From NCBI GenBank assembly GCA_963707025.1, contig CAVPOM010000003.1, positions 256,001 through 320,000 of the forward strand: a stretch of DNA of 64,000 bases, read 5' to 3'. Positions 12,992 through 37,080 of the stretch are shown here, one piece after another. The stretch comes from an uncultured Verrucomicrobiae bacterium. Lineage in GTDB: Bacteria; Verrucomicrobiota; Verrucomicrobiia; Limisphaerales; Palsa-1400. Within the stretch, counting starts at the first letter, position 1, and the number at the start of each line of letters is the position of its first letter. Made by a program: the position numbers and the translations under genes. The notes under the pieces were generated by a model, which was not told where the DNA came from, ran no database searches, and saw nothing but the letters and a program-made list of their open reading frames with translations.

Positions 12992-13351
12992 ATGAAGATT
13001 AAATTATTCTGTAGTCTGATAGTGACGGTAATCACGGTAGCGGGGCTGGCGGGGTGCGCGACCTCGCACAAGAAGGAGTACCTGGTGCATGAGTTTTGGA
13101 CTTACTCCGACGCCGGGCAGGTCACGCGCCACGAGGTGTGGTCGGAGAACCATCACGGCGGCGGGACGGCGCTGCTGGCGGATCCGGTGGCGACGCAGAT
13201 CGCCAGTTTCCACACCGATCAAGCCGGGCTGGGCGGGGCTTCGGCCTTCACGGTGGGCAACGTGCAGTCCACCGTGAGCAGCAACGCGGCGGCCATTATC
13301 TCGGCGGGCGGGACGGCGGTGGGCAACGTCATCCAGGGAGCGGTGAAGTGA
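12992..13351 (+). CDS. Lipoprotein, first gene of the phage-like cluster
   Basis: MKIK + hydrophobic stretch + lipobox LAGC. Confidence 0.75.
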   Translation: MKIKLFCSLIVTVITVAGLAGCATSHKKEYLVHEFWTYSDAGQVTRHEVWSENHHGGGTALLADPVATQIASFHTDQAGLGGASAFTVGNVQSTVSSNAAAIISAGGTAVGNVIQGAVK

Positions 13352-14316
13352 GCCTGGGGAAGCGGGAAGCGGAAATTATGCAACCACTGCTGGATGGGGT
13401 TTATGACCGGAGGATGGCGGCGGCGCTGGCCAGGGGGGCGGCGGCGGCTTACGGGGAGGACCGGGAGATGCAGGCCTGGGCGGAGCTGCAGGGGTGCGAC
13501 GGCTGCGCCATCGTCCGCGATGCCGGAACCGATACGCTGGTTTTTGTGGCGGCGGCGGGCCAGCGCGCGTTTGTCGTGTTCCGCGGCACGACCGATTTGC
13601 GCAACTGGCTCACGGATCTGGACGCGAGAATGGTGAATTGGGAATTGGGAATTGAGAATTTCAAAATTCAAAATTCAAAATTCAGAATTCACGAGGGGTT
13701 TTCGCGGGCGCTGAGGACGGTCTGGCCGGAAATTGTTGACACGCTGGGAAAGCTGGCGCCGGGGAGGCGGAACATTTATTTCACGGGGCATTCCCTGGGC
13801 GGGGCCCTGGCCATGCTCGCTTGCGCTCGCTGGCAAGAAATGCAGAGTGCAGAGTGCAGAGTGCAGAATTCTGCAGTCCCCACTCTCCACTCTCCACTTT
13901 CCGTTTGGCTTTACACTTTCGGCCAGCCGCGCGTCGGCAACGCAGCCTGGGCACGCTGGTATGACGCGCGGCTGGGGAGCCGCTCCTTCCGGGTCGTCCA
14001 TGCCGAAGACATCGTGCCGCGCGTGCCCTGGCTGCTCGGCGCTTACCGGCACGCGGGGACTGAGATTTTCTTTGATGCGCTGGGGAAGGCGCATCAGGAC
14101 TGGCCCTGGTGGAAAAAGGCGCCCTCCGACGCGGCCGGGTTGTGGCGGCAATGGCGCCGCGGCAAGCTGGCGCTGCTGGGGGACCATCATGTCAGGACCT
14201 ATGTCGGCATGCTCAATGGGAAATGCGGCATCCGCCAGGCGGAGTGCGGCGGGCAAAAGGCTGAAACTTTTTTGCGGCGGTCCCGGACTGCCGCCACGGA
14301 CCAACATGGAATTTAA
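13348..14316 (+). CDS. Class 3 lipase-like alpha/beta hydrolase
   Basis: VVFRGT, IHEGF, FTGHSLGGALA, YTFGQPRVGN, DIVPRVP, DHHVRTY; GTG start overlaps upstream stop (ATG 13378 alternative). Confidence 0.85.
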   Translation: MSLGKREAEIMQPLLDGVYDRRMAAALARGAAAAYGEDREMQAWAELQGCDGCAIVRDAGTDTLVFVAAAGQRAFVVFRGTTDLRNWLTDLDARMVNWELGIENFKIQNSKFRIHEGFSRALRTVWPEIVDTLGKLAPGRRNIYFTGHSLGGALAMLACARWQEMQSAECRVQNSAVPTLHSPLSVWLYTFGQPRVGNAAWARWYDARLGSRSFRVVHAEDIVPRVPWLLGAYRHAGTEIFFDALGKAHQDWPWWKKAPSDAAGLWRQWRRGKLALLGDHHVRTYVGMLNGKCGIRQAECGGQKAETFLRRSRTAATDQHGI

Positions 14317-14695
14317 CCCACCAGTGGAAATCGCGGCCTGGCTGGGCTGCCTGGCCTTCGGATTCATGTTGTTCAACGAGGGGTCCAAATTTGTGGACCG
14401 GATCCGGGGCAAAACGCCGCACCCGCCCAATGAGCAACTGGAGTTCAGTGTGGCCGTGATGGACCGGAGGGTGTGCAAGCTGGAGGAGGATGGCGCCAAG
14501 CGCTGGGCCAAAATGGAGGCCGACAAGACGGAGATCCTGCTGGCCGGGGAGTTGCGGGCGGAGAAGCTGCACAACCGGATCAACCCCATCGCGGAGGGAA
14601 TGGAGGGGGTGAAGGCGGCGGTGGAACTGAATAATCAACACACCGTGCTGTTAAGCGCCAAACTGGACCATTTGATGGAGACACAGAACGCATGA
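14306..14695 (+). CDS. Membrane-anchored coiled-coil phage protein (position of Mu gp25/DUF2730-like)
   Basis: N-terminal TM segment followed by coiled coil; gene order before gp26/TerS/TerL. Confidence 0.6.
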   Translation: MEFNPPVEIAAWLGCLAFGFMLFNEGSKFVDRIRGKTPHPPNEQLEFSVAVMDRRVCKLEEDGAKRWAKMEADKTEILLAGELRAEKLHNRINPIAEGMEGVKAAVELNNQHTVLLSAKLDHLMETQNA

Positions 14696-14822
14696 AAAGA
14701 CTTTTGCCCGCCGATCACGCAGATAAGGCGGATAGGAAACGACAAATTCACTACTATAGATTCCGCTTCCTCATCTGCAACCCTCTGCGTGATCCGCGGG
14801 CAAAAAATGCCGGACAAAAAAT

Positions 14823-15092
14823 ATGAATGCGCAACAACATGAGATTTTTCGCGAGACGATGCTGCGGGCCTTCCAGGCGGCGGCGGGCTGCGGCCTGTGC
14901 CTGGCGACGCTGGATGTGACGCTGCGGACCTGCGGGTTCAAGCGGTTCGAGGAGCAGGACATCGAGGCGGAGGTGCAGTATTTCACCGACAAGGGATTTG
15001 TGGCGGAGGTGCCCAAGTCGCACTCGCTGGGCAACCGGATTTGGCGGATCACGGCGGCGGGCGTGGATGATCTGGAGAGAAGGGGACTGTAG
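14823..15092 (+). CDS. Mu gp26-like small winged-helix protein
   Basis: 89 aa; EVQYFTDKGFV...WRITAAGVD pattern; upstream of terminase genes. Confidence 0.6.
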   Translation: MNAQQHEIFRETMLRAFQAAAGCGLCLATLDVTLRTCGFKRFEEQDIEAEVQYFTDKGFVAEVPKSHSLGNRIWRITAAGVDDLERRGL

Positions 15093-15167: not shown

Positions 15168-15833
15168 ATGAAGAAGGCAAAAAAGTTCGACCGGAAACGG
15201 CTGAAGGAGATTCTGGAGTCTTACGAAGGCAGTTTGCACGCCTTCGACGAACTGCGGCCAGATTGTTACGAGCAGGAGGTGGCGGGGCATTCGCTGGAGC
15301 AATTGGATTTGCTTTACTCGGAAATTTTTGCGCCGGGGCAGAGCCTGGAGAAGGCGACCACAAAATGCCCGCCGTGGCCAAAGGGGTCGGCGCATGCCGG
15401 CCAGCCGCCTGGGGAGACGGTGTTGCGGGCAATCCACGACCGGTTCATGACGGAGCAGAGCCTGGACGTGATTCTGGCGGAGAAAGTCAGAAAGGAGCGA
15501 TTCATGAAGGCGGTAGCCCCGCTGCTTTCCAAGGAGCTGCGGCAGGAAGTGGACCGGGTGCTGAGCGAGCTGGCCCAGGAAGTAATGTCGGCCAAAATGC
15601 AGAAAATCCCCATCGCGCGACAATTGCCGTCGGTGGACCGGCTGATCAGCGGGGAAAAGCTGGCGCAGCGCGGGCGGGAGGGGAAGTTGAAGGAGAAGAG
15701 GTTCAAGCTGGAGGAGAGAAGGACGCGCGTGCTGGAGAAGAAAAGCCAGGAGACGGGAAAGCAGGGCGAAGAAGGCGGGGCGATTACAAAGGAGGGCTGG
15801 GAACAGGTGGAGAAGGATTTGAGGCTGCTATGA
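15168..15833 (+). CDS. Putative terminase small subunit (position of Mu gp27)
   Basis: Helical charged protein directly upstream of TerL, ending GAITKEGWEQVEKDLRLL. Confidence 0.55.
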   Translation: MKKAKKFDRKRLKEILESYEGSLHAFDELRPDCYEQEVAGHSLEQLDLLYSEIFAPGQSLEKATTKCPPWPKGSAHAGQPPGETVLRAIHDRFMTEQSLDVILAEKVRKERFMKAVAPLLSKELRQEVDRVLSELAQEVMSAKMQKIPIARQLPSVDRLISGEKLAQRGREGKLKEKRFKLEERRTRVLEKKSQETGKQGEEGGAITKEGWEQVEKDLRLL

Positions 15834-15923
15834 TTGCATCCCACAAAGCGAGGATGGAGGATGGAGTGAGTCAGGGCTCGAACGGAGTCTCGCCCTACCG
15901 GAGTGGGCGGGGCGAACTGGCGG

Positions 15924-17279
15924 ATGGAAAACTACTTTTTGTCCTATCAGGCGAAGTGGCTGCGGGATGGTTCGCCGAAACGGTTGATGGAGAAATCGCG
16001 GCAGATCGGCATGAGCCTGTGCGCGGCCTATGATTTGGTGAGGAAAACTTCGCTGGCGGGGAACCAATACGATGCCTGGGTTTCGAGCAGCGATGAGTTG
16101 CAGGCGGAGTTGTTCGGGATGGATTGCGGGCGTTGGGCGCGGATTCGACACCGGGCCTGCAAGCAACAGGAACTGAGGCGGCAGGTGCTGGATGCGAAGG
16201 AGAAAATATCGGCGCACGTGCTGACGTTCAAGAACGGCCGGGCGATTTATTCGCTGTCGTCAAATCCCAACGCGCAGGCGGGCAAGCGGGGGCGGCGGGT
16301 GTTTGATGAATTTGCGCTGAACGCGGAGAACCGGCTGCTCTATGCCATCGGCCAGCCGGGGACGATGTGGGGCGGCGGGATGGACATTATCTCGACGCAC
16401 CGGGGGTCGGAGAATTTTTTCAACGAACTGGTCAATGAGGCCAGGCACAAGGGCAATCCCAAGGGCTTTTCTCTCCATCGCGTCACCCTTGAGGACGCCT
16501 GCCAACAGGGGCTGCTGGCCAAGCTGCAAGACAAATGGCGCCAGGCCAACCCGGACGACAGCCGCTTGCAATGGCGGGATGAGGATTTTCTGCAAGCCAT
16601 GCGCAATGAATGCGCCGATGAGGAGGTCTGGTTGCAGGAGTTTATGTGCGTGCCGGGGGACGATCAGGCGGCGTTTCTGTCCTATGACCTGATCGCCGGC
16701 TGCGAGTATCAGCCGGGAGATTGGGAATTGGGAATTGAAAACTTGAAATTGGCAAAAGAACTCTACACGGGCGTGGACGTTGGCCGCGACCACGACCTGA
16801 CCGTCATCTGGGTCGTCGAACGGCTGGAGGATGTTTGTTTCACACGCCGGGTGATCTGTCTGGAGCAAGCCACTTTCGACGCACAGGAGCAGGAGCTTTA
16901 TCAACTGTTGGCCCTGCCAACAGTCAGGAGAGCCTGCATTGACCAGACCGGGATCGGCCGGCAGTTCGCCGAGCGGGCCGCCCAACGCTTCGGGCGCTAC
17001 AAAGTGGAGGGGATTCAGTTTACCAGCGGGGTGCAGGAGGAGCTGGCCTACGACACGCGCCTGGCCTTTGAAAAAAAAACGGTGCGCATCCCGGCGGACA
17101 AATGGATTCGGGCCGATTTGCGCAGCATGCGCAAGGAGGCCACCGCCTCAGGCCATATCCGCTTCACCGGGGAGCGGACGCGCCACGGCCACGCCGACCG
17201 GTTTTGGGGGCTGGCCCTGGCCTTGCACGCGGCCAAAGCAGCGACGGCCGCGAACCGGATTTTTGCGCAATTGATATGA
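15924..17279 (+). CDS. Terminase large subunit, Mu gp28-like
   Basis: FLSYQAKW, EKSRQIGMS, VFDEFA, IISTHRG, QEFMC, GVDVGRDHDLTV, IDQTGIG, HADRFWGLALA. Confidence 0.9.
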   Translation: MENYFLSYQAKWLRDGSPKRLMEKSRQIGMSLCAAYDLVRKTSLAGNQYDAWVSSSDELQAELFGMDCGRWARIRHRACKQQELRRQVLDAKEKISAHVLTFKNGRAIYSLSSNPNAQAGKRGRRVFDEFALNAENRLLYAIGQPGTMWGGGMDIISTHRGSENFFNELVNEARHKGNPKGFSLHRVTLEDACQQGLLAKLQDKWRQANPDDSRLQWRDEDFLQAMRNECADEEVWLQEFMCVPGDDQAAFLSYDLIAGCEYQPGDWELGIENLKLAKELYTGVDVGRDHDLTVIWVVERLEDVCFTRRVICLEQATFDAQEQELYQLLALPTVRRACIDQTGIGRQFAERAAQRFGRYKVEGIQFTSGVQEELAYDTRLAFEKKTVRIPADKWIRADLRSMRKEATASGHIRFTGERTRHGHADRFWGLALALHAAKAATAANRIFAQLI

Positions 17280-20173
17280 AGACGATGAACTCCACCTTTC
17301 TATCCCGGCTCCATGCCGCCGCCAACTTGATTTTCAAGAGCGGGGCGCCCTTTCCCTTCAATAAGATCATGCCCTACGACGCCATGGGCGGGGAGCGGAT
17401 GTACCGGGCCTTCGAGCAGTCCACCTGGGTGATGAGAGCGATCAAGAAGATCGCCGGACCGATCGCGGCGGTGGATTTGCATTTCACGCGGGCGGGAGAA
17501 CGGTATCACCAGGCCGGGCTGGAGGCTTATTGGGAGATGCCGGGAGCGGGGCTGACGCGGACGGATTTGATCGAGGCGACGGTGGGCTGGCTCAAGCTGG
17601 AAGGGGAGGCCTTTTGGCTGCTGGATGATGCCTGGCTGGCGCCGTTTCCGGGGCAAGGAAATTTAATTGGCGGCGGTCACAGACCGCCGCTCGCGGTGGC
17701 GCGGCCGGACCGCATGCGGCATGTTGTCAAGAATGGAGAGTTGCAGGGATGGGAGTACGTGGACGGGGCGGGCCGGCGGGCGCTGCTCCTGCCCGAACAG
17801 GTCATCCAGTTGAAGCTGTGGAATCCTTACAACGACTGGCGCGGCATGGCGGAGTTGAAGCCGTGCCGGGACGCGGCGGAGGCGGATTACCTGGCGGGGA
17901 AGTTCAATTTAAACCTGATGCGCAACAACGGGGACCAGGGGGTCTATGTCATCGCCAAGGACGGGCTGCCGGTGGACGGGCAGCGCCAACAAATTGTGGA
18001 CCAGATCCGGGAGAAGCGGGAGCTGGCCCAGCGCGGGGTGTTCAAGCCGGTGTTTCTGGACGGAAACGTCACGATCGAGGACCCGAAGATCCGGGTGCCG
18101 GACGGGGATTTCATCGCCTCGCGGCTGCAGAACCGGCATGAGGTGTTTATCGCCATGGGTGTGCCGGCTTCGATGGCGGATGTCAAGGCCAGTTACTCCA
18201 TCGGCTCGGCCTCGGACTGGTTCATGCTCATCGCCGAGACGTGCATCCCGCTGGGGGAGAAAATCTGCCAGGGGATCAACCAGGTGTTGCGGCGCCAGGG
18301 GGCGGCGCAGGTCAGGGCCTCGCTCAATTGGGACGAGCATCCGGTCATCCAGGCCGTGCGCCGGGAACGGGCCGACACGGCGGCCAAGTATTTTGCCATG
18401 GGCGTGCCGCTCCAGGCGCTCAATGATTATCTGGACCTGGAGCTGCCGGCCTGCCCGGGTTGGGAAAAGGCGTATGTGCCGGCCAAGCTGGCGGAGATCA
18501 GCCAGGAGGCGGCGCCGGCGGCCGCCGTGACGGTGGATGACATGGATGACACGGTCGGCCTGATGCGGCAAGCCCTCAGCCCCGCCAACAGGATCAAACG
18601 GGCTTTTAACGCAAAGGCGCACAGGCGCGAAGACGCAAAGACGGAAGAGGACGGGAATGGCGGATTGGGATTAGGATCAAGATTAGGATTAAGATTAGCA
18701 GGCCAAGAGGGAGCAAGTCAGCGCGCGACGCCCTCCTGCGCTGAAGCTTCCTCCTTCACCGGGCCTGCGCAGGACGGGACGGAGGGCAGGGAGTCCCGCC
18801 CTGCCGACGGGGAGACGGCCGGAGTGCGCCCGTCCCCGGGCGCAGCCACTTTCGGACTTGCACCCCGCCCGGCCAATCCCGCAACCGCCGGGTCTTTGCG
18901 GCCGGCTGCGCCCGGGGACGGGCGCACTCCTTTGCTGATGAAGGGGTTCGTCCCGCGCTTTAACCGGGAGTTGATGAAGGCGCGCACGGAAACGCTGCGG
19001 CGGCTGGAGGGGAACGGGACTTTTGTATTTGACACGGCGGGGTTTGCGCGCGGACTGGCCACGGGACTGCGGCCGGTGGCGCAGGCGGCGTTGCAGGACA
19101 TGCAAAATGAGGACGAGCGGATCCTCTGCTTGGACAGGCGGGAAATGGTCTGGCGGGCGGAGGCGGAACGGATTGGACGGGAGATCGAGACGGCGGCGGG
19201 CCAGGCGGAGGGAGGCGGGCAGGCGGACGCGGTGCGGGCCAAGTTTAATGAGATCGCCAAACGCCGCGCCCCGGAGCTGGCGCGGGAGGAAATGGAGGCG
19301 CTCCACTGCGGATTAGGATTAGGATTAGGATTAGGATTAGGATTAAGATTAGGAGGGGAAGAGGGATCGAGTCAGGGCGCGACGGAGTCTCGCCCTACCG
19401 TCGGCGCGGGCGAAGCCGCTGCTGTTATTCCGGCCTGCGGCGGGCAGGGGACTGCCCGCCCTGCCGTGAAAGGAATGGGGGTGGCGCCGCTGCGGCGGCT
19501 GCTCCATCCGGAGGTCAGGGTGGTGGACGCGCGCCGGGGGATCGTGGATTATATCGCGTCGGATGAAAGTATTGACAGTTACAAGGAGGTCATCCGGGCG
19601 GCGGGCTGGCGCTTCACCCATTTTGCCCGGAATGCGCCCTTCGTGGATTCGCACGATTATTCCAGCATCGAGAAATGCCTGGGCAAGGTGATTGATTTCC
19701 GGGTGGACGGCGCGCGGCTGATCGAACGGGTGCAGTGGGCCATAGATGTGCCGGAGAACAAGCTGGCCCAGATCGGCTGGAAGATGACGGAGGCGGGCTA
19801 CCTCAAGGCGGTCAGCCTGGGGTTTTTTCCTGTCAAGTATGTCACGGCGGGCGCGGGGGAGGAATGGACCCGGCAGTTGCGGGAGCTGGGGTTGCCCGCC
19901 GACGCGCCCGTGCGCACCATTTACACCGAGCAGGAACAGGTCGAGCTGTCCTGCTGCGTGGTCGGGTCCAATCCCAACGCCCTGGCCAAGGCCTGGCAGG
20001 CGGGGGCCATCAGCGACGCGGACATCGCAACACTTTCCTTGGAATACTCACCCCGTGAAAACGGCCGCGCGGCCGACTGTCCTGCTCCCGCCGCGCCGGC
20101 CCCGGGGCAGGCACGGGCGAGGTTTTTGGAGGAATTGCACAAAGCAATGAAAACAGAAGAACAGAAATTATGA
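17276..20173 (+). CDS. HK97-type portal fused through a repeat-rich linker to an HK97-type prohead protease (965 aa)
   Basis: Portal: LKLEGEAFW, RPDRMRHV, EQVIQLKLWNPYNDWRGM, IAMGVPAS; protease: ASDESIDSYKEVI, FVDSHDY, LKAVSLGF, ELSCCVVGSNPNA; ATGA overlap with TerL. Confidence 0.85.
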   Translation: MKTMNSTFLSRLHAAANLIFKSGAPFPFNKIMPYDAMGGERMYRAFEQSTWVMRAIKKIAGPIAAVDLHFTRAGERYHQAGLEAYWEMPGAGLTRTDLIEATVGWLKLEGEAFWLLDDAWLAPFPGQGNLIGGGHRPPLAVARPDRMRHVVKNGELQGWEYVDGAGRRALLLPEQVIQLKLWNPYNDWRGMAELKPCRDAAEADYLAGKFNLNLMRNNGDQGVYVIAKDGLPVDGQRQQIVDQIREKRELAQRGVFKPVFLDGNVTIEDPKIRVPDGDFIASRLQNRHEVFIAMGVPASMADVKASYSIGSASDWFMLIAETCIPLGEKICQGINQVLRRQGAAQVRASLNWDEHPVIQAVRRERADTAAKYFAMGVPLQALNDYLDLELPACPGWEKAYVPAKLAEISQEAAPAAAVTVDDMDDTVGLMRQALSPANRIKRAFNAKAHRREDAKTEEDGNGGLGLGSRLGLRLAGQEGASQRATPSCAEASSFTGPAQDGTEGRESRPADGETAGVRPSPGAATFGLAPRPANPATAGSLRPAAPGDGRTPLLMKGFVPRFNRELMKARTETLRRLEGNGTFVFDTAGFARGLATGLRPVAQAALQDMQNEDERILCLDRREMVWRAEAERIGREIETAAGQAEGGGQADAVRAKFNEIAKRRAPELAREEMEALHCGLGLGLGLGLGLRLGGEEGSSQGATESRPTVGAGEAAAVIPACGGQGTARPAVKGMGVAPLRRLLHPEVRVVDARRGIVDYIASDESIDSYKEVIRAAGWRFTHFARNAPFVDSHDYSSIEKCLGKVIDFRVDGARLIERVQWAIDVPENKLAQIGWKMTEAGYLKAVSLGFFPVKYVTAGAGEEWTRQLRELGLPADAPVRTIYTEQEQVELSCCVVGSNPNALAKAWQAGAISDADIATLSLEYSPRENGRAADCPAPAAPAPGQARARFLEELHKAMKTEEQKL
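18662..18935. repeat. GATTAR hexamer run plus nested REP-like palindromes, in frame in the portal linker
   Basis: GATTAG/GATTAA units; CCCTCC..GGAGGG nested hairpins; GGAGTGCGCCCGTCCCCGGGCGCAGC...GCTGCGCCCGGGGACGGGCGCACTCC inverted repeat. Confidence 0.8.
19310..19466. repeat. GATTAG hexamer run plus REP halves, in frame in the portal linker
   Basis: (GATTAG)n encodes GLGLGLGLRL; GCGACGGAGTCTCGCCCTACC; GCGGGCAGGGGACTGCCCGCCCTGCC. Confidence 0.8.
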
Positions 20174-21433
20174 AGACGTTAAGTGAAGATCAATTCCAGG
20201 AGACAGTCCTGCGGGGAGTCAACGCGGTGGGGGAGAAATTCGAGGCGGTGGAACGCAACCAGGAGACGCTGCTGCGCAATTACGACCAGTTGGGCCGGGA
20301 AACCAAGCAAACCATGGAGGAGCTGACGCGGCTGAAGAACACGGCCAACGACCGCGCCCAGATTCTGAGCGCGGTGCAGAAGCTGCAACTGCAACTGCGG
20401 GCCGAAGCGGTCGCCGCCGGGATGGACCCGATCCAGCGCATCGTCAACGACCCGGAAAAAAGGGCGCGGCTGAACCTGGCGGTGCGCCTGGCGGTGGACC
20501 GGAACGGGGACCTGCGGCCGGCGATTGAACCGCTGGCCCGGGCCATCGGGGAGGACACCGGGGAAGGGGCGACCCTGATCATCGCGCAGTTGTTCAAGGA
20601 AATCTACGACACGCTGGCCCAGTACCGGGGACTGGAGCACGCTGGGGGTCAGGCGGCTGGGAACCAAGGTGACCAACTTCCCGGTCAAGACGGCCCGGGT
20701 GGTGGCGCAATGGCTGACCACCGAGGCGGTGGCCATCCCGGACGACACCAACGAGGCCGGTTCGACCATGACGCTGACCGTGCTGCCCAACGCGGTGCTG
20801 CTCAACGTCAGCCGGCAGTTGATCGAGGACGCGGAGTTCGACGTGACCACGGTGGTGATGGAGGACTTCCAGGAGGCCTGGAACCTGCGGCTGGACACGG
20901 CGGCCTTCACGGGCAACGGCACGGGCGACGGGAACAACGGCGGCTTCACCGGGCTGTTCAACGCCGGCAACAAGGCGGTGGCGGCGCAGGGGAACACGAC
21001 GGTGGCGGCGCTGGATTTCGACGACGTGACCCGCTGCCTGACGTCGGTGGCACCGGTGGTGTTGAAACGCAAGCCGCGCTGGTGGCTGCACCCGCAGATG
21101 CTGGTGCGGTTGATGGGGATCAAGGACAACAACGGCCGGCCGATTTTCCTGGGGGCGCTGGAGGCGCCCAGTTACGGGGCCATCGGCACCATCCTGGGCT
21201 ACCCGGTGACGGCGGTGATGGCGGCGCCCAACACCGACGCGGCCGGCCAACTGGTCGCCGCCTTCGGGGACCGGAACGGCCAGGTGGTGGGGGTGCGGGA
21301 CGACTTCGTGTTTGAATCGTCGGATCATTACCGGTGGAACACGCTGGAGCGGTCCTTCCGGGCCTACGGCCGGGCGGCCACAGGCTGCCGCCAGGCCAAC
21401 GCGTTTGCGATTTTGCAGACGGCGGCAAGGTAA
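20170..21433 (+). CDS. Major capsid protein, HK97 family (420 aa after removing one extra C near 20625)
   Basis: N-terminal coiled delta-like domain; LLNVSRQLIEDAEFD, AAFTGNGTG, IKDNNGRPIF, ILGYPV, AFGD. Confidence 0.85.
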
Positions 21434-21571: not shown

Positions 21572-22066
21572 ATGAAAAAGATATTGTTGACAATGATGGG
21601 GATGGCGGCGGCGGGCGCGGCCTGGGGGCAGGAGTATGCGAGCCTGCCCATCACCTACACGCCGCCGGGCACGACGAACACGGGGACGGCGCTGACCAAC
21701 GCGGTGCCGGCCAACGCCACCAACGCGGTGCTGAGCGATCCGATTGGACTGACGAGGTACGACAGTTGCGCCATCCAATGGGAGTTCAACGCCCTGAGCA
21801 ACGCCGCGCCGCTGGGCTGCACCAATTATCTGACGTTCGGGGCCTCGTCGGACGGGTTGGTCTTCACCCCGACGAACGCGCCGTTTCTGACGCTGACGGT
21901 GGTGATCCCGCCGACGGCGACCAACGGGGTGCTGGTGACCAATCTGTCCGGCACGCTGCTGGGAAGCATCGGCTACCTGCAGTTGCAGACCATGGCCTGC
22001 CAGGGGACGAACACCACCACCAACCATAGCGTGCTGATTTGGCGCAAGCCAAAGCGGAACGGGTAG
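21572..22066 (+). CDS. Signal-peptide protein directly after the capsid gene
   Basis: MKKILLTMMGMAAAGAAWG|QEY; beta-rich, TN-rich. Confidence 0.75.
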   Translation: MKKILLTMMGMAAAGAAWGQEYASLPITYTPPGTTNTGTALTNAVPANATNAVLSDPIGLTRYDSCAIQWEFNALSNAAPLGCTNYLTFGASSDGLVFTPTNAPFLTLTVVIPPTATNGVLVTNLSGTLLGSIGYLQLQTMACQGTNTTTNHSVLIWRKPKRNG

Positions 22067-28498: not shown

Positions 28499-28542
28499 CG
28501 GGGAAATGAAAAATGAAAAATGAAAAATGAAAAATTGAAGCC

Positions 28543-29373
28543 ATGAAAAAGATCAGACAGATGGGATCCCGATTCCGAATCGGGAGACCGATAGGCCTGA
28601 CATTCTGCATTTCTGCCCTTGCCCAGGGCAGCCTTTCCCCCGCCGGGATGGTTCCCTATCTGCTGCCCATGCCCACCAATGCAGTGGCTTCCAGCGGCGG
28701 CTACACCAACGTGGCCAACGGCCTGCTGGCCTGGTGGAAGCTCAACGACGGCACCGGGGCCAGCGCGGCGGATTCATCCGGCAACGGCAACACGGCGGCG
28801 CTGGTCGGCACGCCAACGTGGGGAACGGGCGATCTCACCCTCAACGGCACCAGCCAATACGTCAACACAACGGACGGCAACTCGATCAAGGGTTTGGCGG
28901 CCTATAGCTTGTGCTTTTGGATTGACGGCCCGTTGAACAATGCCAATGGGTCGGACCTATGGTGTGAGCACAACAATTCGGGAAGCGAGACGCGCTTTGA
29001 AATCTATGTCAATTACCCGGCCCCGTTCACGCTTTGGGTGGATGGCAGTTCAACGGATGCAGCGAGCACGGCCTGGATTACCGCGACCACCAGCGCCATC
29101 CCGGCGAACACCTGGACGCATGTGGCCGTGACAGTTGACTTGACGGCGGGCAAGGTGCTGGTCTATTTCAACGGCTCGCAAGACGCGACGACCGGAACTG
29201 TGAGCGGCACAACGTTTGTCGGGACCAACCCGCAAGTAGTCCCATGCCTGGGCAATGATCCCGACGGCGGCGGTTATTATTTGCCGGCCACGCTCTGCCA
29301 GGCGCGGGTCTATAATCGCGCCCTGACCGCGACGGAGATAAACGACCTTTTCCACTATGACGCGCATCCTTAA
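28543..29373 (+). CDS. LamG/concanavalin A-like domain protein with signal peptide
   Basis: GLLAWWKLNDGTG...DSSGNGN, WTHVAVT, VYFNG, ARVYNRALTATEI. Confidence 0.85.
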   Translation: MKKIRQMGSRFRIGRPIGLTFCISALAQGSLSPAGMVPYLLPMPTNAVASSGGYTNVANGLLAWWKLNDGTGASAADSSGNGNTAALVGTPTWGTGDLTLNGTSQYVNTTDGNSIKGLAAYSLCFWIDGPLNNANGSDLWCEHNNSGSETRFEIYVNYPAPFTLWVDGSSTDAASTAWITATTSAIPANTWTHVAVTVDLTAGKVLVYFNGSQDATTGTVSGTTFVGTNPQVVPCLGNDPDGGGYYLPATLCQARVYNRALTATEINDLFHYDAHP

Positions 29374-30751
29374 GATCGGCTTGACATTCTGCATTCTGCA
29401 TTTTGCATTCTGCATTAGGGCGGCGGGGACTGGCCCGGCCTATCCACTGAAATACAACGCCGGCCAGCATTACCTGGTGGACCAGAACAACGTCCCGTTT
29501 TTCATCATGGGCGACAGCCCCTGGTATCTGACCGAATCGCTCTACCAACCGGACATCCTCTATTATTTGACCAATCGCGCGGCGCAAGGCTTCAACTCGA
29601 TCATCCTGGACATCACCGCCGTCACCGAGGAAAGCGCGCAGTCTTTCCCCAGCCGGACAGGCAACATCTACGGGCAGGACCCGTTCACCGGCGTCATCGC
29701 CGGGCCTTACACCAACCTGGCCGCGATCAACGCCAATTATTTCACCAACGTGGACTGGGTTTTGAAGGCGGCGGCGTCCAATGGCATTTGCTGCTTCATC
29801 TATCCCATGTTTGACGGCGTGCAGGACGGCGGCGAGTGGGGCTGGTATCAGGACGCCGCGCAGAACAGCAGCAACGCCATCTACGGCTACGGCCAGTTCA
29901 TCGGCAACAGGTATGCCGCGCAGCCCAACATCGTTTGGATCGGGGCGGGGGATTTCGACGAGCCGCAGCCCCCCGATCCGGTTTGGACCATCATCGCCAA
30001 CGGCATCTTGTCCAAGGACAGCAGCCATCTCATGACCGCGCAGGCCGCGCCGTTTGAAGCGGCCAAACTCCACTACACAAACACCTGGTGCAACCTCAAT
30101 GACACTTATCCAAGGTCGCCTGGCCCGCAAAACACCACCTACGATTTTGAGAAAACCAACTGGTTCTATTCACCGGTCATGCCCAGCTTCTCGCGTGAGC
30201 CGTGGTATGAGAACGACCAGTGGGGGACCATCGGCACGAACTACTTTGACTGCCGGCGTTATGCCTGGGGATCGGCGACCTTCGGGGCCTGCGGCGTGTT
30301 TTACGGGAACCAAAACATTTGGGCCTTCAACGGCTCGGCTTCCAGCCAGGATTGGAAAAGCGCCATGCAATCCCCGGCGGCCGTGACCAACGTGATCAAG
30401 CTGCTGAACACGCGGCCGTGGTGGAACTTCGTACCCGACTACAACAACGCGGCGGTGAGCGCGGGTTATGGGACTTATGGCCAGGAGGCTTACGTGACGG
30501 CCATGCGCGAGGCCAGCGGGCAGGGGATCATTGCTTATGTTCCGTTTGGCACCATGACACCGACGGTGGCCATGAATCAATTGGCTGGATGGTCGGCGAC
30601 GGCCTGGTGGTATAATCCCCGGACCGGCGCGGGCACGGCCATCGGCGCCTATGCCACGAGCGGGACGCAGACTTTCACGCCGCCAGACACCAATGACTGG
30701 GTGCTGGTGATAGACTCGGTGCTGGCGCGGAGCGCGGGGGTTCACCCATGA
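29357..30751 (+). CDS. DUF4038 (apiosidase/GH140-like) protein with C-terminal collagen-binding-like domain and signal peptide
   Basis: YLVDQNNVPFFIMGDSPW, RAAQGFNSI, PNIVWIGAGD, EPWYE, AWWYNPRTG, DWVLVI. Confidence 0.8.
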   Translation: MTRILKIGLTFCILHFAFCIRAAGTGPAYPLKYNAGQHYLVDQNNVPFFIMGDSPWYLTESLYQPDILYYLTNRAAQGFNSIILDITAVTEESAQSFPSRTGNIYGQDPFTGVIAGPYTNLAAINANYFTNVDWVLKAAASNGICCFIYPMFDGVQDGGEWGWYQDAAQNSSNAIYGYGQFIGNRYAAQPNIVWIGAGDFDEPQPPDPVWTIIANGILSKDSSHLMTAQAAPFEAAKLHYTNTWCNLNDTYPRSPGPQNTTYDFEKTNWFYSPVMPSFSREPWYENDQWGTIGTNYFDCRRYAWGSATFGACGVFYGNQNIWAFNGSASSQDWKSAMQSPAAVTNVIKLLNTRPWWNFVPDYNNAAVSAGYGTYGQEAYVTAMREASGQGIIAYVPFGTMTPTVAMNQLAGWSATAWWYNPRTGAGTAIGAYATSGTQTFTPPDTNDWVLVIDSVLARSAGVHP

Positions 30752-30906
30752 GAAAAATCGGATTGACAAGATGGATGGGACTGATGGGATTGATGGGAGC
30801 GATGGGAGCCATGGGAGCAATGGGAGCGATGGGAGTGATGATGGCCGGCGGGGCGGGCCGGCGCCGCAATAACAGGCCAGGTGGAGATGGAGGAGAATAT
30901 GTCTGA
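30748..30906 (+). CDS. Signal-peptide-like mini-ORF built from 9-mer repeats (MRKIGLTRWMGLMGLMGAMGAMGAMGAMGVMMAGG...)
   Basis: ATGA overlap with upstream stop; GATGGGAGC-type repeats; one base from fusing to the 30881 ORF. Confidence 0.4.
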   Translation: MRKIGLTRWMGLMGLMGAMGAMGAMGAMGVMMAGGAGRRRNNRPGGDGGEYV

Positions 30907-31693
30907 AGAAGGCCCGGAGTTTGAAGTTCGTGTGGAGACGGCGCTGGAACTGGCCGGGGCGGAGGAGGGGGCGGCGGAGCTGGAGAGGGCCATCGGGAAG
31001 GCCAAGGCGGTGGGCCGGAATTTTGGCCGGTTGGCAAAGCAACTGGCCAGGGCCAGGGAAGGGGTGAGGCGGTTTCGCCTGGCACACCCAGGCGGAGGCG
31101 CCGGGGCGGTGGAGACAAGGCAGAATGCATCGTCCTGCGCAGAGGCTTCCACCTTGGCCGGGCCTACGGTGGACAGGACGGAGGACAGGACGGCGGAGGA
31201 GAAAGGGCAAGGGCAGCATGAAAAGCAGGGGAGGGATTACGAATTGGAAGAGGGAACGAGTCACGGCTCGACGGAGTCTCGCCCTACCGGGGCGGAAGGA
31301 GGGCAGGAGGGCAAAGGGACTGAGGCAAGACAAAATGCATCCTCTCCCGCCGGGCCTTCCACCTGCGCCGGGGCTTCGGAGGACAGGACGGCGGACGAGA
31401 ACGGCCAAGGGCAGAATGAAAACGAGGAGAGGGATTACGGATTGGAAGAGGGAACGAGTCACGGCTCGACCGAGCCCCGCCCGGCCGGAGCGGGAGGCGG
31501 CGATGGTGGAGACGGGAGGATGGCAGAGGCGGGCCGGCGGGAGGTGGAGGCGATGGTGCGGCAGGCGATGGAGGAGCGGGAAAGGACGCGGCCACAAAGG
31601 GAAAACCGGCCGGAGGAGGAGGCGCGGGTGGCGGCGCTGGAGTCGCGGCTGCGGTGGCTGGAGGAACGGACGAGGATTGGCCGGGATTTCTGA
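30881..31693 (+). CDS. Short/degenerate tape-measure-like protein with repeat-derived middle
   Basis: Helical ends (EFEVRVETALELAGAE...; ARVAALESRLRWLEER); position before the tail-tip gene; internal duplication of REP DNA. Confidence 0.45.
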   Translation: MEMEENMSEEGPEFEVRVETALELAGAEEGAAELERAIGKAKAVGRNFGRLAKQLARAREGVRRFRLAHPGGGAGAVETRQNASSCAEASTLAGPTVDRTEDRTAEEKGQGQHEKQGRDYELEEGTSHGSTESRPTGAEGGQEGKGTEARQNASSPAGPSTCAGASEDRTADENGQGQNENEERDYGLEEGTSHGSTEPRPAGAGGGDGGDGRMAEAGRREVEAMVRQAMEERERTRPQRENRPEEEARVAALESRLRWLEERTRIGRDF

Positions 31694-31846: not shown

Positions 31847-34222
31847 GTGACCTATACCACACTGACATACAATGGGACGGAGAAGTCGCTGGCTGATTGG
31901 GGGATCGGCAAGTGGCGGCGCGAGGCCTTTAACCAGGCGAGCGATTCGTTCGCATTCGATCTGCTGGCCGCGACGGACGCGGCGGAGATTCTCCCCTATG
32001 GGGCGATGGTCACAATTTCCACGGGGAGGACGCCCGGGCCGGGCGTCCCTACCCCGGCGAATGGACTGCCCGTGTCGGGCTGCACTTCATGGACGGGGGG
32101 CAAGAAATGGTTTGTCGGATGGCGGGTGCAGAACATCCGCACCGGGACGCCGGAGATGGAGGGGTTCGCTTACAGATTCGCGGGGCCGTGGGACTTTTTC
32201 TTCGAGCGGCTGGTTTTTCAGAAGCTGTGGCTGACCTGGAACGGGGTGAAGCAGATCGCCGACTGGCGCTCGCAAGTGGTGCTGGGGATGAGCGTCAATG
32301 CCCTGACCGGAGCGGGGGACACGGTGACGGGGAGCACGGCGACCAACCTGATGAGCATCAGTCAACAATTAAAGGAGATCGCGGCCTAAGTTATTGCGCA
32401 AAGTTCCTACGAGCAAACCATCAACGGGCTGGGCTGGCCGGCGGGCGGGCAACCGCAGTTTGACAACCTCACGACGGACGGGAACGGCAATTACGAGCTA
32501 TTGCCGGCGCCTGGCCCAAATTGCCGGATCCCGGATTTTGTGCCGGGGCTGGCGGGCGCAAGCGGAGACACGTCGGTTAGCACGTCGGGCCTTATGCTGC
32601 GCGCTCCTCTCGATGCGGTGAATGACATGACCTGCGGGGAGTGTTTTCGCCGCATGCCGCGCTGGATCGGGGCGGTAGGCTCGCCGGTGGCGTGGTTTGA
32701 TTATACGACGGCGCCGCCGACGCTGCAGGTGAGCACGCGGGACCAGTTGGCGGGCGTGGCGCTGCCGCTGGTCGGGGCCACCGAATCCATCAAAATCCAG
32801 CGGCGGGATGATTTGATCCCGTCGGCCATCGCGTTCAAGTATCGCATCAGCGGGCAGATCAATGGCACGCCTTATTCCATCATCGAGAATGACATTGCGG
32901 CCACGGTGGATGGCAGCGCGGTGGAGGGGATGGGGATGTTCGGGCTGCTGACCAATTTGCGCGGGGGCGCGATTTCCGGGGACGCGCAAACGCAGTTGCC
33001 GCAGCAGGCGCGGCGGTTGGCGGCGCAAATCGCGACGTTCGATTTCGAGGGGTTCTCCGGCGATACGGCCAGCGGGACGATCGCGACGGTGGCGCTGAAC
33101 CTGGCCGATCCGGCGGGCGGGGGAGCGGCGGCGGCGTTCTGGACGGCGCTGTTTCCGCAACTGGCCAATGTGAGCGGGCTGGCGTTTTATCAGGACCCGG
33201 CGGGAGCGGTGGCGCCGCTGGTGCAGGATGCCGGCGGCAATCCGATCAACACGGCGGCGTATCCGAATATCCTGGCGGACGGCAATGTGGCGCCGTGGAT
33301 GTATGTCAATAATACGCCGGGCAGCGCCACGCCGGGGCAATGCGTGGGGGCGACGATCACGGGTTATTTTGCCTACACGGACAACGCCAGCCCGGCGGCC
33401 GATCCGGACGTGAACCCCGGCACGGTGCAGTGCCATCCGCTGACCATCAAGGTCAAGCTGACCAATCTGAGCAGCGGCACCTATCAGTCGCGCCCGCAGG
33501 TCAACCCTGGCGAGCCGGTGCCCTACGGGCTGCCGGGTTACATTTACGCGATTGAATCCATCCCGCAATACCAGGGGAGTTTGAGCGTGGTGGAAGAGGA
33601 GATCGGCGACCTCTGCCCGCTGGGGCATGGTCTGAATCTGAGCGGAGGGCTGGCGGAATGGGGGACGATGAACGCGTGCGTGCAACAGGTCAATTATGAC
33701 GGGACGGGGCGGACGGAAATTATTTTTGGCCCCGCCCGGCATTTGGGGAACGCGGATCTGGTGGAGCGGCTGCGGGTGAACCGGGGGCCGCGCTGGTATA
33801 ATTTGATCGGGAACGATCTGTTGAACTCCAATCCGAGCACGGGGGCGACGGCGCTGGGAAAGAATGTGCCGGTGTCGTCGCCCAGTCCGGGGAACAAGGT
33901 GTGCAGTGAGACGCTGCTGCCGCAGAGTCTGAAGGATTTGCAAAGCCATTTGGCGGGCTACACGCAGTTGTTGCCGGGCGCTTATCTGTGGACAAAAGGC
34001 AACGGACGCAGCGGGCTGAGCCTGGTGGATGCGGGGCCGGGGCTGGCGCTGGCGGGGGGAAGCGGCGGGGCGCTGGACAGCCAGTACGTGCTGGTTTCGG
34101 TCGCGCAACTGCTCTCGGTGGTGGCGGGCCAGCCGGTGAAGTTCTTCGAGCTCAACACTTGCGAGGGCGGGGACGCGACCTATTACCGGACGTTCCTTTG
34201 CACGGACAAGTATCATCATTGA
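31847..34222 (+). CDS. Putative tail tip/hub protein with an in-frame TAA at 32387-32389 (791 aa read through)
   Basis: ORFs 31847 and 32501 share a frame and the sequence between them is open after the TAA. Confidence 0.6.
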
Positions 34223-34783
34223 TCGGGCTGATCGGACTGAGCAGACGGACCAGACGGATTGGACGGATTAGCGAGAATGAAATATGGCAAATCGAGTGGC
34301 AACGTGCCCCAGGGCGAAACAGATCGTCGGCTATAAGGGCTGGCTGGGCTGGGCGGGGGGCTTTGCCTTTCCGGGGTTCAAGGGGAATTGGGTTTATCCG
34401 GTGACTTATGCCGGCGGGGTGCCGACTAACAGCGGGCCGGGAAGCTGGACCTTTGCCGCGGACGGCGGCGCGATCACGGGCAGCACCGCCAACTTCGCCG
34501 CGGGCGACCTGGTGCTGCGGGAGTTCGAGCCGGCCGGTCCTTTGACGGATTATTTAACCGGGATCGCGCAAAGCTATCCGAAATACTGGACCGTTTATAT
34601 TTGCACGTCGGCCATCACCGGGAGCACGACGGATCCGGCGCTGGACAGCACCCATTTTGAGGCGTGGGATTTCCAGGTGTTCACCGTCAGCGGCGGCACC
34701 CTGACGACCGACGCGGGCAATGCGGCGGGCGGCTCCATTGGCGGCTCGGGCCGGGCGCTCTTTACGGAGACGACGGACACGGC

Positions 34784-35791
34784 TAGAGCGTTTCCATAAA
34801 TGATATAGCTTGACTGGGGCGAGAGGGCTGGCAGGCTTGAGCCATGCGAGCGATACCCGTGTCTGCGCGCGAGCGCATCCTGCAACTCTATGAACAAGGC
34901 AAAAGCACCCGCGAGATCGCGGACTTTTTCGGCTTTTGCGTGGCGGCGGTGCGCCGGGTCCGGCAGCAGTTCCAAGAGCGCGGCACGCTCCAGCCGCAAA
35001 CCCATTTGTGCGGGCGCAAAACGCTGCTGAACGCCGGACGCCAGGCTCGCCTGCAAAAGCTGGTGGCGGCCCAGCCCGACGCGACGTTGGCCGAGTTGGG
35101 GGCGCGTCTGGACCGCCCTTTCGGGACCTCCACTGTGGATTTGTGGCTGCGCAAACTGGGGTTGAGCTATAAAAAAAACGCTCTGCGCCGCCGAGCAGAA
35201 CCGTCCGGACGTGGCCGAAAAGCGGGCCCATTGGCATGAGCGTCTGGCAAGTGACCCACCTGCCCGACTGGTCTTCGTGGATGAAAGCGGGGCCAACACC
35301 AAGATGACCCGTTTTTGCGGGCGGTCACCCGTGGGCCGAAGACTGGCGGCCCACGTCCCGCAGGGACATTATCAGACCACCACCCTGGTCTGCGCCATTC
35401 GTCTGGCCGGGCCTGCGGCCCCCTGCCTCTTTGAGGGGGCCATGGACGGGGAAATGTTTTTGGCCTGGATCCAGCAGGGGCTGGTGGTGGAGTTGCGCAA
35501 GGGTGACTTGGTCATCATGGACAACTTGGCCACGCATAAGGTGACCGGAGTTCGCCAAGCCATCGAAGAGGCCGGGGCAACGCTGCTGTATCTGCCGCCC
35601 TATTCGCCAGACTTTAATCCCATCGAAAATATGTGGAGCAAGGTCAAACAAATTATGCGAGGTCTCGCGCCGCGAACCGCCAAGGAACTGCTCCAAGCGG
35701 CGAAGATTGCCTTTGAAGCCATCTCCACCGCCGATTGCCGGGGCTTCTTTTTAAACGCCCGCTACGCTACATGATTTATGGAAATGCTCTA
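34784..35791 (+). mobile_element. IS630-family insertion sequence, copy 1
   Basis: TA at both ends; IRs TAGAGCGTTTCCATAAATGATATAGC / GCTACATGATTTATGGAAATGCTCTA. Confidence 0.95.
34844..35774 (+). CDS. IS630 transposase (two ORFs joined by frameshift at the A-run near 35171-35178)
   Basis: HTH orf then VFVDES, VIMDNLATHK, LPPYSPDFNPIE. Confidence 0.9.
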
Positions 35792-36846
35792 ATTTAGAAT
35801 TGACAATCACGACGGCGCTGGACAATTTTCCCCTGATGCCGACGGCGATCAGCGGCCTGACGGCGGCTCTGGGCACGAGCAATGACAGCGCGCCGGCCTG
35901 GGCGGACGCCAGCGCGCAGGAGGCGGCGGCGGCGGGGACTTTTGTCCATGATTGGACCTTCCCCGGCAATTACGACGGGACAGCGGCGACTTACACGCCG
36001 CCGGGGACGCCGCCGGGCGCGGCGCAGGCGGAGCTGGTTTTTCCGGCGCTGCCCTATCAACGGACGGTGAATTTCTCCCCGGTCTATCCTGGCGGGGGCG
36101 CGATCAACAGCGTCTTCGCCATCGTGGCATCGCCCCCGGCGGTTTATCTGCCGGGCCTGGTGAGCTGGGCCTGTTCGGCGAGTTCGTTGCAATGGGAGTT
36201 CGCGGCCTGGAGTTGGAATGCGAGCGTGGAATACAGTTTCGCCCTCGGCCACTTTGGCGCGCTGGCCACGGCGCCGGGGACAATCACGCAGACGATCACG
36301 CTGGGCCGGCCTTACTCCTTAAGCGATGTGGCGGCGCAGGCGGCGGCCTTGATGAGCGCCACGACCTTTGCCGCGATTGCCTGGGGAACGTCGTGGCAGA
36401 ACACCTACGATGCCACCGGGGCGGTGGTCTCGACCCAGAATTTTGCGTTCGATGTCACCAACGCCATCACGGCTTCCTGCCGGATCGGCACGGAGGTGAA
36501 GTGGGGCGCGGCGGTCAACGGGCTGTTCACCTCGGGGGCGGCTTCGTGTTATTGCAGCAAAGCCCTGGTGGACGTGTGCGGCAATTATTGCCAGCGGACC
36601 TACCACTGCCCGACGGTGACGTGTGTTTCGGGCAATGTGGACGGATACGCGCCGGTGGAGATTGACCCGCCGGGCACGCCGGGGGAATCTTCTGCGATTT
36701 ACGCGGGGTGCCAATGCACCTGAAGAAATGCAGAGTGCAGAATGCAAAATGCAGAATGAAATGCGGCCTCCTCCGCAGAGCCTGCCACCTGCGCCGGGCC
36801 TTCGGTGGACAGGACGGTGGACGGGATGGTGGACAGGGAATGAAGA

Positions 36847-37080
36847 ATGCAAAATGAAAATCAGCCCATCCTCCTGCGCCTCAGCCTCGCCGAAATCCAC
36901 TCGCGCGGACGGGTCAGGACGCCGGGATATGTGGAGGCGCTGCTGGCGGCGGGGCGGGCGGACGCGGACGGGGTGCATTGGCTGGTGCCGCTGGCGGCGC
37001 TGCGGGAGGTGTGGGCCCGCCATGGCGCGCCGGGCTTGGACCTGGAGCATGGGGGCGGCTGCGGCGGATGCGGCTCCTGA
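36847..37080 (+). CDS. Small terminal protein of the cluster with C-terminal CGGC
   Basis: 77-aa ORF: RTPGYVEALLAAG...GGGCGGCGS. Confidence 0.55.
   Translation: MQNENQPILLRLSLAEIHSRGRVRTPGYVEALLAAGRADADGVHWLVPLAALREVWARHGAPGLDLEHGGGCGGCGS

Follow-up and report, generated by a model that had tools for sequence, protein, structure and literature searches.

Organization of the locus

The DNA discussed here is a 64-kb stretch (C3:256001-320000, hereafter the window) of the genome of an uncultured Verrucomicrobiota bacterium, G000, an assembly of 6.96 Mb in 18 contigs that has a GC content of ~62% and is 88% complete. The window contains a cluster of phage-type genes, with segments numbered g01 to g26, that covers the lysis-position, packaging, head and tail functions of a tailed phage. 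It forms a single run of ~22 co-oriented genes on the forward strand (12992-37080), as seen in frame plots of the GC content at third codon positions (GC3). Coordinates without a contig label are positions in the window, and all cluster genes named below lie on its forward strand. The relatives used for comparison are G001-G005, which belong to the same genus as G000, G015, from another genus of the same family, and the family members G013 and G016.

To the left, the cluster is preceded by minus-strand genes for OEP, AcrB and MFP proteins (6538-12408), which make up an RND efflux operon, and to the right it is followed by ubiX and then ubiA (37110-38738). The name ubiX is taken from the first-pass annotation, an earlier reading of the letters alone, and from the adjacency to UbiA; Pfam gave no match, the called frame not having been scanned. 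The GC content is 0.59-0.65 within the cluster versus 0.59-0.66 outside, and the cluster has a copy number of one in G000. Within it, neither Pfam nor PHROGs gave a match to an integrase, a Mu transposase or any replication gene, the sole transposase being that of an IS630-family insertion sequence (IS). There is no tRNA in the 64-kb window, no pair among its top-ranked repeats brackets the cluster edges, and a k-mer comparison of one edge against the other showed no shared stretch of 11 nt or longer and no common terminal inverted repeats.

These results agree with the first-pass annotation, which had described a co-oriented cluster of host-like composition between the efflux operon and ubiX, with terminase, portal-protease and capsid genes and without mobility or replication genes, tRNA or edge repeats. 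Its description of the head and tail gene set as complete is unproven, because no tape measure is recognised; no connector or fibre could be named either, besides a weak adaptor match of g12. Neither Pfam nor PHROGs gave a match for g01, g03-g05, g10, g11, g15-g18 or g21-g26.

Lysis-position, packaging and head genes

The first gene of the lysis-position block, g01 (12992-13351), encodes a 119-aa protein with a lipoprotein-type signal and without a family match. It is 92% identical to its counterpart in G003 and 38% identical to that in the G015 prophage described below, with a ratio of nonsynonymous to synonymous substitution rates (dN/dS) of 0.11. The second gene, g02 (13387-14316), encodes a class-3 lipase (PF01764, E 5e-31; phrog_21992), a homologue of which occupies the equivalent position in G015, G013 and G003. 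No endolysin is recognisable in the cluster and the lipase fills the lysis position; g02 may be a lipid-targeting lysis enzyme. The three following genes, g03 (~14300-14695), g04 (14823-15092) and g05 (15168-15833), are delimited by their GC3 frames and have no family match. The G015 prophage has counterparts of g03 (45% identity) and g05 (31%). The g05 gene, which has strongly diverged in G003, is a candidate small terminase from its position alone.

The large terminase TerL is encoded by g06 (15903-17279), which is intact and contains Terminase_6N and Terminase_6C domains (phrog_5909, E 4e-36). Alignment reveals a short repeat-derived stretch in its interdomain linker at ~16720, and comparison with G003 gives a dN/dS of 0.15 at a synonymous divergence (dS) of 1.16. 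The next gene, g07 (17102-20173), is a single open reading frame (ORF) of 1023 aa in which a portal protein (PF04860, E 1e-27) is followed by a Mu F-like middle part and a prohead-protease-like end, the latter matching phrog_617 and phrog_4523 at residues 805-960. The Mu F family (PF04233) does not score on the G000 protein itself, but is matched by the portal ORFs of G016 (E 2e-14) and G015 (E 3e-5), to which the middle part of g07 is homologous; in both of these relatives the protease is a separate gene. In G003 portal and protease are likewise fused, in an ORF of 1008 aa.

The scaffold/delta and major capsid segments, g08 and g09 (20170-21433, with the capsid at 20669-21433), correspond to a single ORF of 418-493 aa in the relatives. 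Pfam gave no match on G000 g09, which has a protein-atlas score of 0.97 to PF05065 clusters, and the G015 capsid homologue (39-43% identical) matches PF05065 with an E value of 4.6e-32. Judged by this homology, g09 is an HK97-fold major capsid protein of that family, and all parts of a Mu-type head module (portal, Mu F-like part, protease/scaffold and capsid) are present in G000. Downstream, g10-g13 (21572-23767) comprise a 164-aa protein with a signal peptide (g10), a repeat-rich protein of 71 aa that is not conserved (g11), an adaptor-like protein whose G003 counterpart matches the head-tail adaptor phrog_442 with an E value of 7e-6 (g12), and a 237-aa protein with a C-terminal Ig-like domain that matches CHB_HEX_C_1 and Fn3_assoc (g13). 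Of these, g10, g12 and g13 are syntenic in G003, G013, G015 and G016.

Tail genes

The g14 gene (23863-24784) is a single ORF of 292-339 aa in the relatives, and the 180 homologues collected, mostly from Verrucomicrobiota, are all annotated as hypothetical. An AlphaFold model of a 306-aa relative, built from a 39-row alignment, has a pLDDT of 81. In Foldseek, this model is matched over its full length by a T5 tail-tip chain (7qg9_G), T5 pb6 (9iny, 5ngj) and the P74-26 tube (8ed0), with E values of 5e-8 to 2e-4 and TMq of 0.44-0.53, whereas single-domain tubes and Hcp match only half of the chain. This pattern identifies g14 as a major tail tube with two fused tube domains, of the T5 pb6 / P74-26 siphophage type. 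A programmed frameshift resembling the G/GT-type chaperone slip, considered for g14/g14b, was rejected, as the gene is a single ORF in G003, G013, G015 and G016 and its fold is that of a tube. The conserved tail genes g15 (136 aa) and g16 (211 aa), at 24841-25987, are recognised by synteny and have no family match; in G015, the counterpart of g16 is the N-terminal part of a protein of 1398 aa that bears a pectate lyase.

The hub segments g22 and g23 (31847-34222) form one unbroken ORF of 797-819 aa in the relatives. The 797-aa G003 protein was modelled with AlphaFold using an alignment with 39 of its 107 homologues (pLDDT 80.6), and Foldseek returned 50 matches at E <= 0.001, headed by baseplate hub and spike chains. 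Among them, with E values of 5e-10 to 3e-4, are T4 gp27, Mu gp44, VgrG, the T5 tail tip and contractile-injection-system baseplates; the larger size of the protein relative to these targets keeps the TM scores low (0.2-0.3 over the query). A profile search against PDB sequences found nothing. From the model, g22+g23 is assigned as the tail hub or central spike, with the gp27/VgrG/Mu gp44 fold. A podovirus-type tail, which had been considered for lack of a tape measure, was rejected after the hub and tube folds were obtained. The cluster ends with a distal gene, g24+g25 (34284-36723), a single ORF of 495 aa in G003 and 453 aa in G005 without a family match, and with g26 (36847-37080), the last gene before ubiX, which encodes 77 aa and is 81% identical to its G003 and 65% identical to its G005 counterpart (dN/dS 0.32).

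Variable cassette and in-frame repeats

Between g16 and the hub lies a variable cassette, g17-g21 (26017-31693), with matches to PF13385, PF13204 and PF12904. The first two genes, g17 and g18, encode Asn/Thr-rich secreted proteins, g19 encodes a LamG lectin, g20 an apiosidase-like glycoside hydrolase and g21 a small charged protein. The products of g17-g20 (26017-30751), which include signal-peptide proteins, look secreted and resemble those of ordinary host genes, with no recognisable virion parts among them, and g20 has a paralogue on contig C18 at 61% identity. In G000 the g17 and g18 genes share 140 nt, read in different frames, and G003 shows a similar overlap. The g21 gene contains two repeat copies and has a dN/dS of 0.78 against G003.

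Repeats of a host type occur inside several ORFs. The portal ORF g07 carries two such insertions, both in frame (18650-18930 and 19300-19460), built from GGATTA arrays together with the REP-like motif GAGTCYCGCCCKRCC and including a perfect 27-nt inverted repeat (18821-18847/18904-18930); the second insertion joins the portal/Mu F gene to the protease gene. Further in-ORF repeats are found at the TerL linker and twice in g21 (31124-31517), and all of them share one reading frame, giving ...SQG(S/A)TESRPTG.... The first-pass annotation had stated that repeat insertions preserve reading frames, and this is seen in the portal ORF, the TerL linker and g21. The REP-like motif is present in 50 copies in the genome, four of which lie in the 24-kb cluster.

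Mu-like ancestry and relatives

In G015, g01-g16 and g22-23 are found in identical order, with 27-57% identity, at another chromosomal site. Upstream of these late genes, G015 encodes a Mu-type transposase (phrog_310, E 2e-6), a MuB-like ATPase (phrog_296, E 3e-29), Gam (PF07352), a Dam methylase and DUF5131. Because the G015 genes stand behind such an early region, the G000 cluster is, on sequence grounds, the late (lysis, head, packaging and tail) half of a Mu-like transposable siphophage whose early half has been lost. Gam is found in G015 and on contig C135 of G013. A tblastn search of the whole G000 assembly with the G015 transposase, MuB-like and Gam proteins returned nothing beyond a 110-aa transposase-like fragment on contig C12, and no late-activator family was recognised in any locus. 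The fragment belongs to a second, small Mu-like remnant (C12:199983-203143), in which it lies 2.3 kb from a g16-like stretch (27%).

Relatives of TerL occur in 23 of 41 genomes including G000, among them 19 of the 24 other family members and in some cases in several copies; relatives found by TerL include Verrucomicrobiota from sets of metagenome-assembled genomes (MAGs) of peat and soil. The capsid gene is present in 12 of 31 family genomes, G000 included. Truncated relatives at other sites lack TerL and protease (G013:C24) or TerL (G016:C184), and TerL adjoins housekeeping genes in G013:C135, G003:C172 and G004:C82. One member of this group of loci, L031 (G013:C24), L032/L033 (G016:C184), L030 (G003:C172) and L014 (G004:C82), combines a portal-capsid-tail set lacking TerL and protease with an intact capsid gene at 80% identity.

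Closer relatives were sought upstream of g01 for traces of the early region. Two loci with a capsid at 73% identity, L135 and L136, have retained DUF5131 at this position. No Mu early gene was found upstream of g01 by tblastn in the seven close loci whose contigs reach that far, of which only L145-L147 extend more than ~1.5 kb in that direction, and the upstream ORFs of L145 and L150 gave only unrelated genes in Pfam. The first-pass annotation had reasoned that its reading would fail if homologues occurred only in full prophages at variable sites. This holds in part, given that G015 does carry a full Mu-like prophage at another site.

Conservation and selection

The whole arrangement of the locus recurs in G003, where acrB-mfp-(GH92)-[g01..g26]-ubiX-ubiA lies on one 82-kb contig; in G005 its right part, g20..g26-ubiX-ubiA, lies at the start of a contig. 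Every named late gene of G003 is open, save the variable g17-g21 stretch. Substitution rates between G000 and G003 were calculated with a Nei-Gojobori script, leaving out g05 and g11, which gave no match; g18-g20 have no counterpart in G003. The dN/dS is 0.06-0.44 in 25 of 26 cluster segments, with g21 as the exception, and is lowest in the head and packaging genes (capsid 0.06, scaffold 0.09, portal 0.13, TerL 0.15). Six flanking genes give 0.11-0.29. Most cluster genes have a dS of 0.22-0.45, similar to the 0.13-0.41 of the flanks. A dN/dS near 1, which the first-pass annotation had named as a sign against its reading, is therefore not what the cluster displays.

A wider sample of 17 close loci, including that of G005, was obtained from IMG/VR and from metagenome and MAG scans. 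L129 and L150 apparently derive from a single contig, and L146 hardly differs from L147, so that the loci represent fewer than 17 distinct lineages. The IMG/VR records end within the cluster, and the right flank is visible in three genomes. These loci yielded 140 gene instances: 115 read whole in a single frame, 11 run off a contig end, eight are partial and six are broken. In three of the broken cases the portal and protease are simply not fused. All 12 close loci with a capsid gene have it whole. Comparison of G003 with the metagenomic relatives gives dN/dS values of 0.06-0.54 in 72 of 73 cases, the remaining one being 0.84.

Damage in the G000 copy

Four possible lesions are found in G000. 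Relative to all relatives in the alignments, the scaffold-capsid ORF is split by an extra C at ~20626 and the tube ORF by an extra C at ~24520; these two +1 frameshifts are absent from the first-pass annotation, which had reported one nonsense codon and one IS hit. Both of the latter are real. The hub contains a TAA codon (32387-32389) where the 797-aa ORF of G003 has Tyr, and an IS630-family element with 26-nt terminal inverted repeats and HTH_23 and DDE_3 domains (34784-35791, forward strand) splits g24-25, which is one ORF of 495 aa in G003. This element has ~20 near-identical copies in the G000 genome, two of them in the window (34784-35791 and 56245-57250), which points to a recent transposition burst.

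Host genes show similar indels. A +1 frameshift of the same kind, in a G run, affects one of ~27 host genes compared with G003 (C18, ~56187), and lepA (C14:~22900-24700, L140) is spread over at least four frames, versus an intact 667-aa ORF in G003. The lepA and C18 frameshifts are either assembly indel errors or real pseudogenes. Because host genes including lepA are affected, the capsid and tube frameshifts are not to be trusted and may themselves be assembly errors, and a cluster-specific decay based on frameshifts could not be upheld. Indel errors of this sort make frameshift-based pseudogene calls in such an assembly unreliable. The lineage-specific changes in the hub amount to 19 nonsynonymous and 56 synonymous in G000, compared to 24 and 59 in G003; with no excess of amino-acid changes, the stop codon, if real, is recent. 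Taken as it reads, the G000 copy has recently been damaged and is probably no longer fully functional.

The left edge and the 180-nt repeat

A dispersed repeat of 180 nt (12805-12987, forward strand) ends 4 nt ahead of the g01 start codon. Five other full copies are present in G000 at 81-84% identity (C5:296363-296542, C4:726144-726323, C14:22379-22561, C2:75461-75641 on the minus strand, and C17:33926-34105). Each stops a few bases short of an ATG and contains a conserved CCCACGGTGGG palindrome, and these other copies precede unrelated host genes, such as lepA. The copy upstream of g01 is shared by G003 and by six contig loci from metagenomes or IMG/VR (L129/L150, L130 and L144-L147); ahead of lepA the repeat is absent in G003, G005 and G001, making the lepA copy specific to G000. 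A comparison with Rfam gave no match. The repeat may be the promoter or leader of the cluster, and more generally may be a mobile promoter or leader cassette. Its interpretation as the mark of a shared late-promoter regulon was rejected in view of the unrelated genes behind the other copies, the G000-specific lepA copy and the lack of an Rfam match.

In G000, G003, L129/L150, L144 and L145, the phage-side homology begins within ~90 nt of one point (12716-12805), and the DNA to the left of it differs. In L145 an AbiEi antitoxin gene and a recombinase fragment lie upstream of g01, and in L146 and L147 GH92 and mfp. This shared left breakpoint was at one stage taken as proof of a single ancestral loss of the early genes. 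That argument was dropped, given that the junction in G000 could equally be the end of its own GH92 deletion and that the boundary coincides with the dispersed repeat.

Origin and maintenance of the cluster

The reading that we hold, with modest confidence, is that the cluster is a defective prophage retained by its host under selection, with particle production as the likeliest selected activity, because constraint extends over terminase, portal, protease, capsid, tube and hub alike. The early half, with the repressor, transposase A, MuB-like ATPase, Gam and their neighbours, would have disappeared a single time, in the common ancestor of a shallow group of peat-soil Verrucomicrobiota; one such loss is the simplest reading, though unproven. 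The remaining late half would then have been inherited beside ubiX and held open by purifying selection for the building of DNA-filled tailed particles. As the element could neither replicate nor transpose, these particles would package only chromosomal DNA, either in the manner of a gene transfer agent (GTA) or, as in lateral transduction, from a site near the cluster. In the absence of a phage late activator, expression would depend on a promoter on the host side, for which the 180-nt repeat abutting g01 is one candidate. A further step, which we put forward tentatively and consider rather unlikely, would be that the cluster constitutes a Mu-derived GTA-like or lateral-transduction system for chromosomal DNA that evolved independently in these peat-soil bacteria. 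The titles and abstracts of the literature searched mention neither a GTA in Verrucomicrobia nor a Mu-derived GTA.

Several observations weigh against retention by selection. Conservation is shallow: no cluster gene lies beside mfp or ubiX in G001, G002 or G004 (5 to 20 kb examined), which leaves the cluster missing at the locus in three of the five other genus members searched, and the capsid gene is present in only one of these five, in genomes that are 64-92% complete. Syntenic clusters, for which the first-pass annotation had proposed a search, are found at this locus in G003, with the whole cluster, and G005, with its right part. The left neighbour varies, being mfp in G000, GH92 in G003, L146 and L147, Maf in L150/L129 and AbiEi in L145, so that one ancestral loss at one locus is unproven, and the common left boundary could stem from recombination at the 180-nt repeat. 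The metagenome test for early genes is a weak one, as it relied on tblastn with the proteins of one distant prophage. The remnants G013:C24, G016:C184, G003:C172 and G004:C82, which lack TerL or portal, indicate that decay of such prophages is common in the family. Within the cluster itself, g17-g21 are swapped or absent in G003, G016 and G015, no tape measure, chaperone or fibre is recognised, so that the tail set may be incomplete, and the G000 copy bears two to four disruptive lesions. Synonymous divergence from G003 is uneven (TerL 1.16, lipase 0.78, g17 0.79, g22 0.72, g24 0.98), and the G005 hub and g24-25 have dS values of 1.05-1.9 versus 0.36-0.54 for ubiX, that is, they are two to four times more diverged. 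This shows that the cluster swaps alleles with a wider phage pool, and a low dN/dS need not mean host-level selection, because imported alleles carry the selection they experienced in active phages. Finally, no sequencing run holding RNA is listed, only two metagenome runs with small word shares. The long residence under purifying selection proposed in the first-pass annotation thus stands as regards the low dN/dS and the shared locus in two other species, and is weakened by the shallow conservation and the replaced alleles.

These same points feed the alternative that the cluster is an inert, decaying Mu-like remnant, in which deletion of the early region removed a lethal element and the late genes are silent passengers that seem constrained only because the remnant is young and recombination with infecting relatives refreshes them. 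The many truncated relatives in varied states, the uneven dS with its far more diverged G005 alleles, the stop codon, IS insertion and possible frameshifts of G000, the loss of the lipase in L129/L150 and the lack of conservation of g17-g21 and g11 would all be expected of it. It is harder to reconcile with most genes, whose dS equals that of the flanks and whose dN/dS is nevertheless 0.06-0.44, with the open late genes of G003 outside the g17-g21 stretch, or with the hub of G000, in which the ratio of lineage-specific changes (19:56) resembles that of G003 (24:59). Neutral drift at a dS of ~0.3 is moreover reckoned to leave many stops and frameshifts, and 115 of the 140 gene instances are whole. 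We therefore regard an inert remnant as possible but doubtful.

That the cluster is instead a helper-dependent mobile element, a natural mini-Mu or satellite-like entity with defined ends that is moved and packaged by the transposase of a co-infecting Mu-like phage, appears improbable. The common start of the phage-side homology in G000, G003, L129/L150, L144 and L145, with different DNA to its left, is what such an element would produce, and full Mu-like relatives that might act as helpers exist in the same bacterial family. However, the right flank is ubiX in all three genomes where it is visible, the two edges share nothing of 11 nt or more and no pair of top-ranked repeats brackets them, the left boundary coincides with a dispersed repeat able to drive rearrangements, and the cluster is single-copy in G000. 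Least credible of all is that the cluster is part of a complete, active prophage, with the early region absent from the assembly or misplaced through misassembly, as the first-pass annotation had allowed for: the 18 contigs, the 88% completeness and the indel problems seen in lepA leave some room for it, but host genes abut both ends on the contiguous 82-kb contig of G003, the same left junction recurs in L146 and L147, and G000 holds no transposase, MuB or Gam homologue by tblastn beyond the 110-aa fragment on C12.

If host-level selection on the prophage-derived cluster is real, it would be a young example, from an uncultured phylum of soil bacteria, of a transposable phage converted into a particle system kept by the host. 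The intermediates would be visible side by side, from a full prophage in one genus through intact late-only clusters in several species to freshly broken copies, and the early stages of GTA-like domestication would be open to direct study. Should the cluster prove to be no more than a remnant in slow decay, it would be an ordinary defective prophage.

Other features of the window

Apart from the cluster, the window encodes a proteasomal-type AAA ATPase and a Pup-ligase family gene (919-4265), that is, a pupylation system in a Verrucomicrobiota genome. An IS3-family element with orfA and an rve-domain orfB (39538-40742) lies 0.8 kb downstream of ubiA. Synteny with G003 stops just past ubiA, and the GC content falls to 0.56-0.59 across 38-42 kb.

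Comparison with known systems

Mu-like transposable siphophages include B3 and D3112 of Pseudomonas and RcapMu of Rhodobacter. The cluster resembles them in its Terminase_6-type TerL, its portal joined to a Mu F-like part, its prohead protease, its predicted HK97-fold capsid with an N-terminal scaffold, and a non-contractile tail with a modelled tube and gp27/Mu gp44-like hub; its full relative in G015 has the transposase, MuB-like ATPase and Gam upstream. Unlike these phages, G000, G003 and the close relatives are without the entire early region, and neither the transposase and MuB-like ATPase nor Gam and a late activator of a complete Mu-like phage were found in G000. The cluster further differs in its tube, which appears to be of the fused double-domain T5 pb6 / P74-26 type, and in having a class-3 lipase in the lysis position with no recognisable endolysin and no recognised tape measure.

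GTAs of the RcGTA type occur in Alphaproteobacteria. Like RcGTA, the cluster, which is known here from its genes alone, comprises head, tail and packaging genes without genes for replication, integration or excision. It is chromosomal, occupies the same locus in G000, G003 and G005 and has TerL and portal conserved, with its structural genes under purifying selection. In contrast to RcGTA, its conservation is seen only in a subclade of one genus, its evolution is mosaic with allele replacement, its ancestry is Mu-like and it has no known host regulator.

Defective or "grounded" prophages kept under purifying selection (compare PMC6379469 and PMC8987985) offer a third comparison. The cluster shares with them the character of an apparently vertically inherited remnant without mobility genes, with low dN/dS, recombination with phages, IS insertions and gradual gene loss. 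It differs in its Verrucomicrobiota host, in the Mu-like nature of the phage and in retaining a nearly whole set of virion genes rather than scattered ones. Bobay et al. 2014 (PNAS) are said to have reported defective prophages kept under purifying selection.

A last comparison is with PBSX-type defective phages and tailocins, which likewise consist of phage structural genes retained by a host and unable to propagate. PBSX is controlled by regulators of its own and can be induced by a known route, neither of which is known for the cluster. Tailocins have no capsid, portal or terminase, and the cluster conserves all three.

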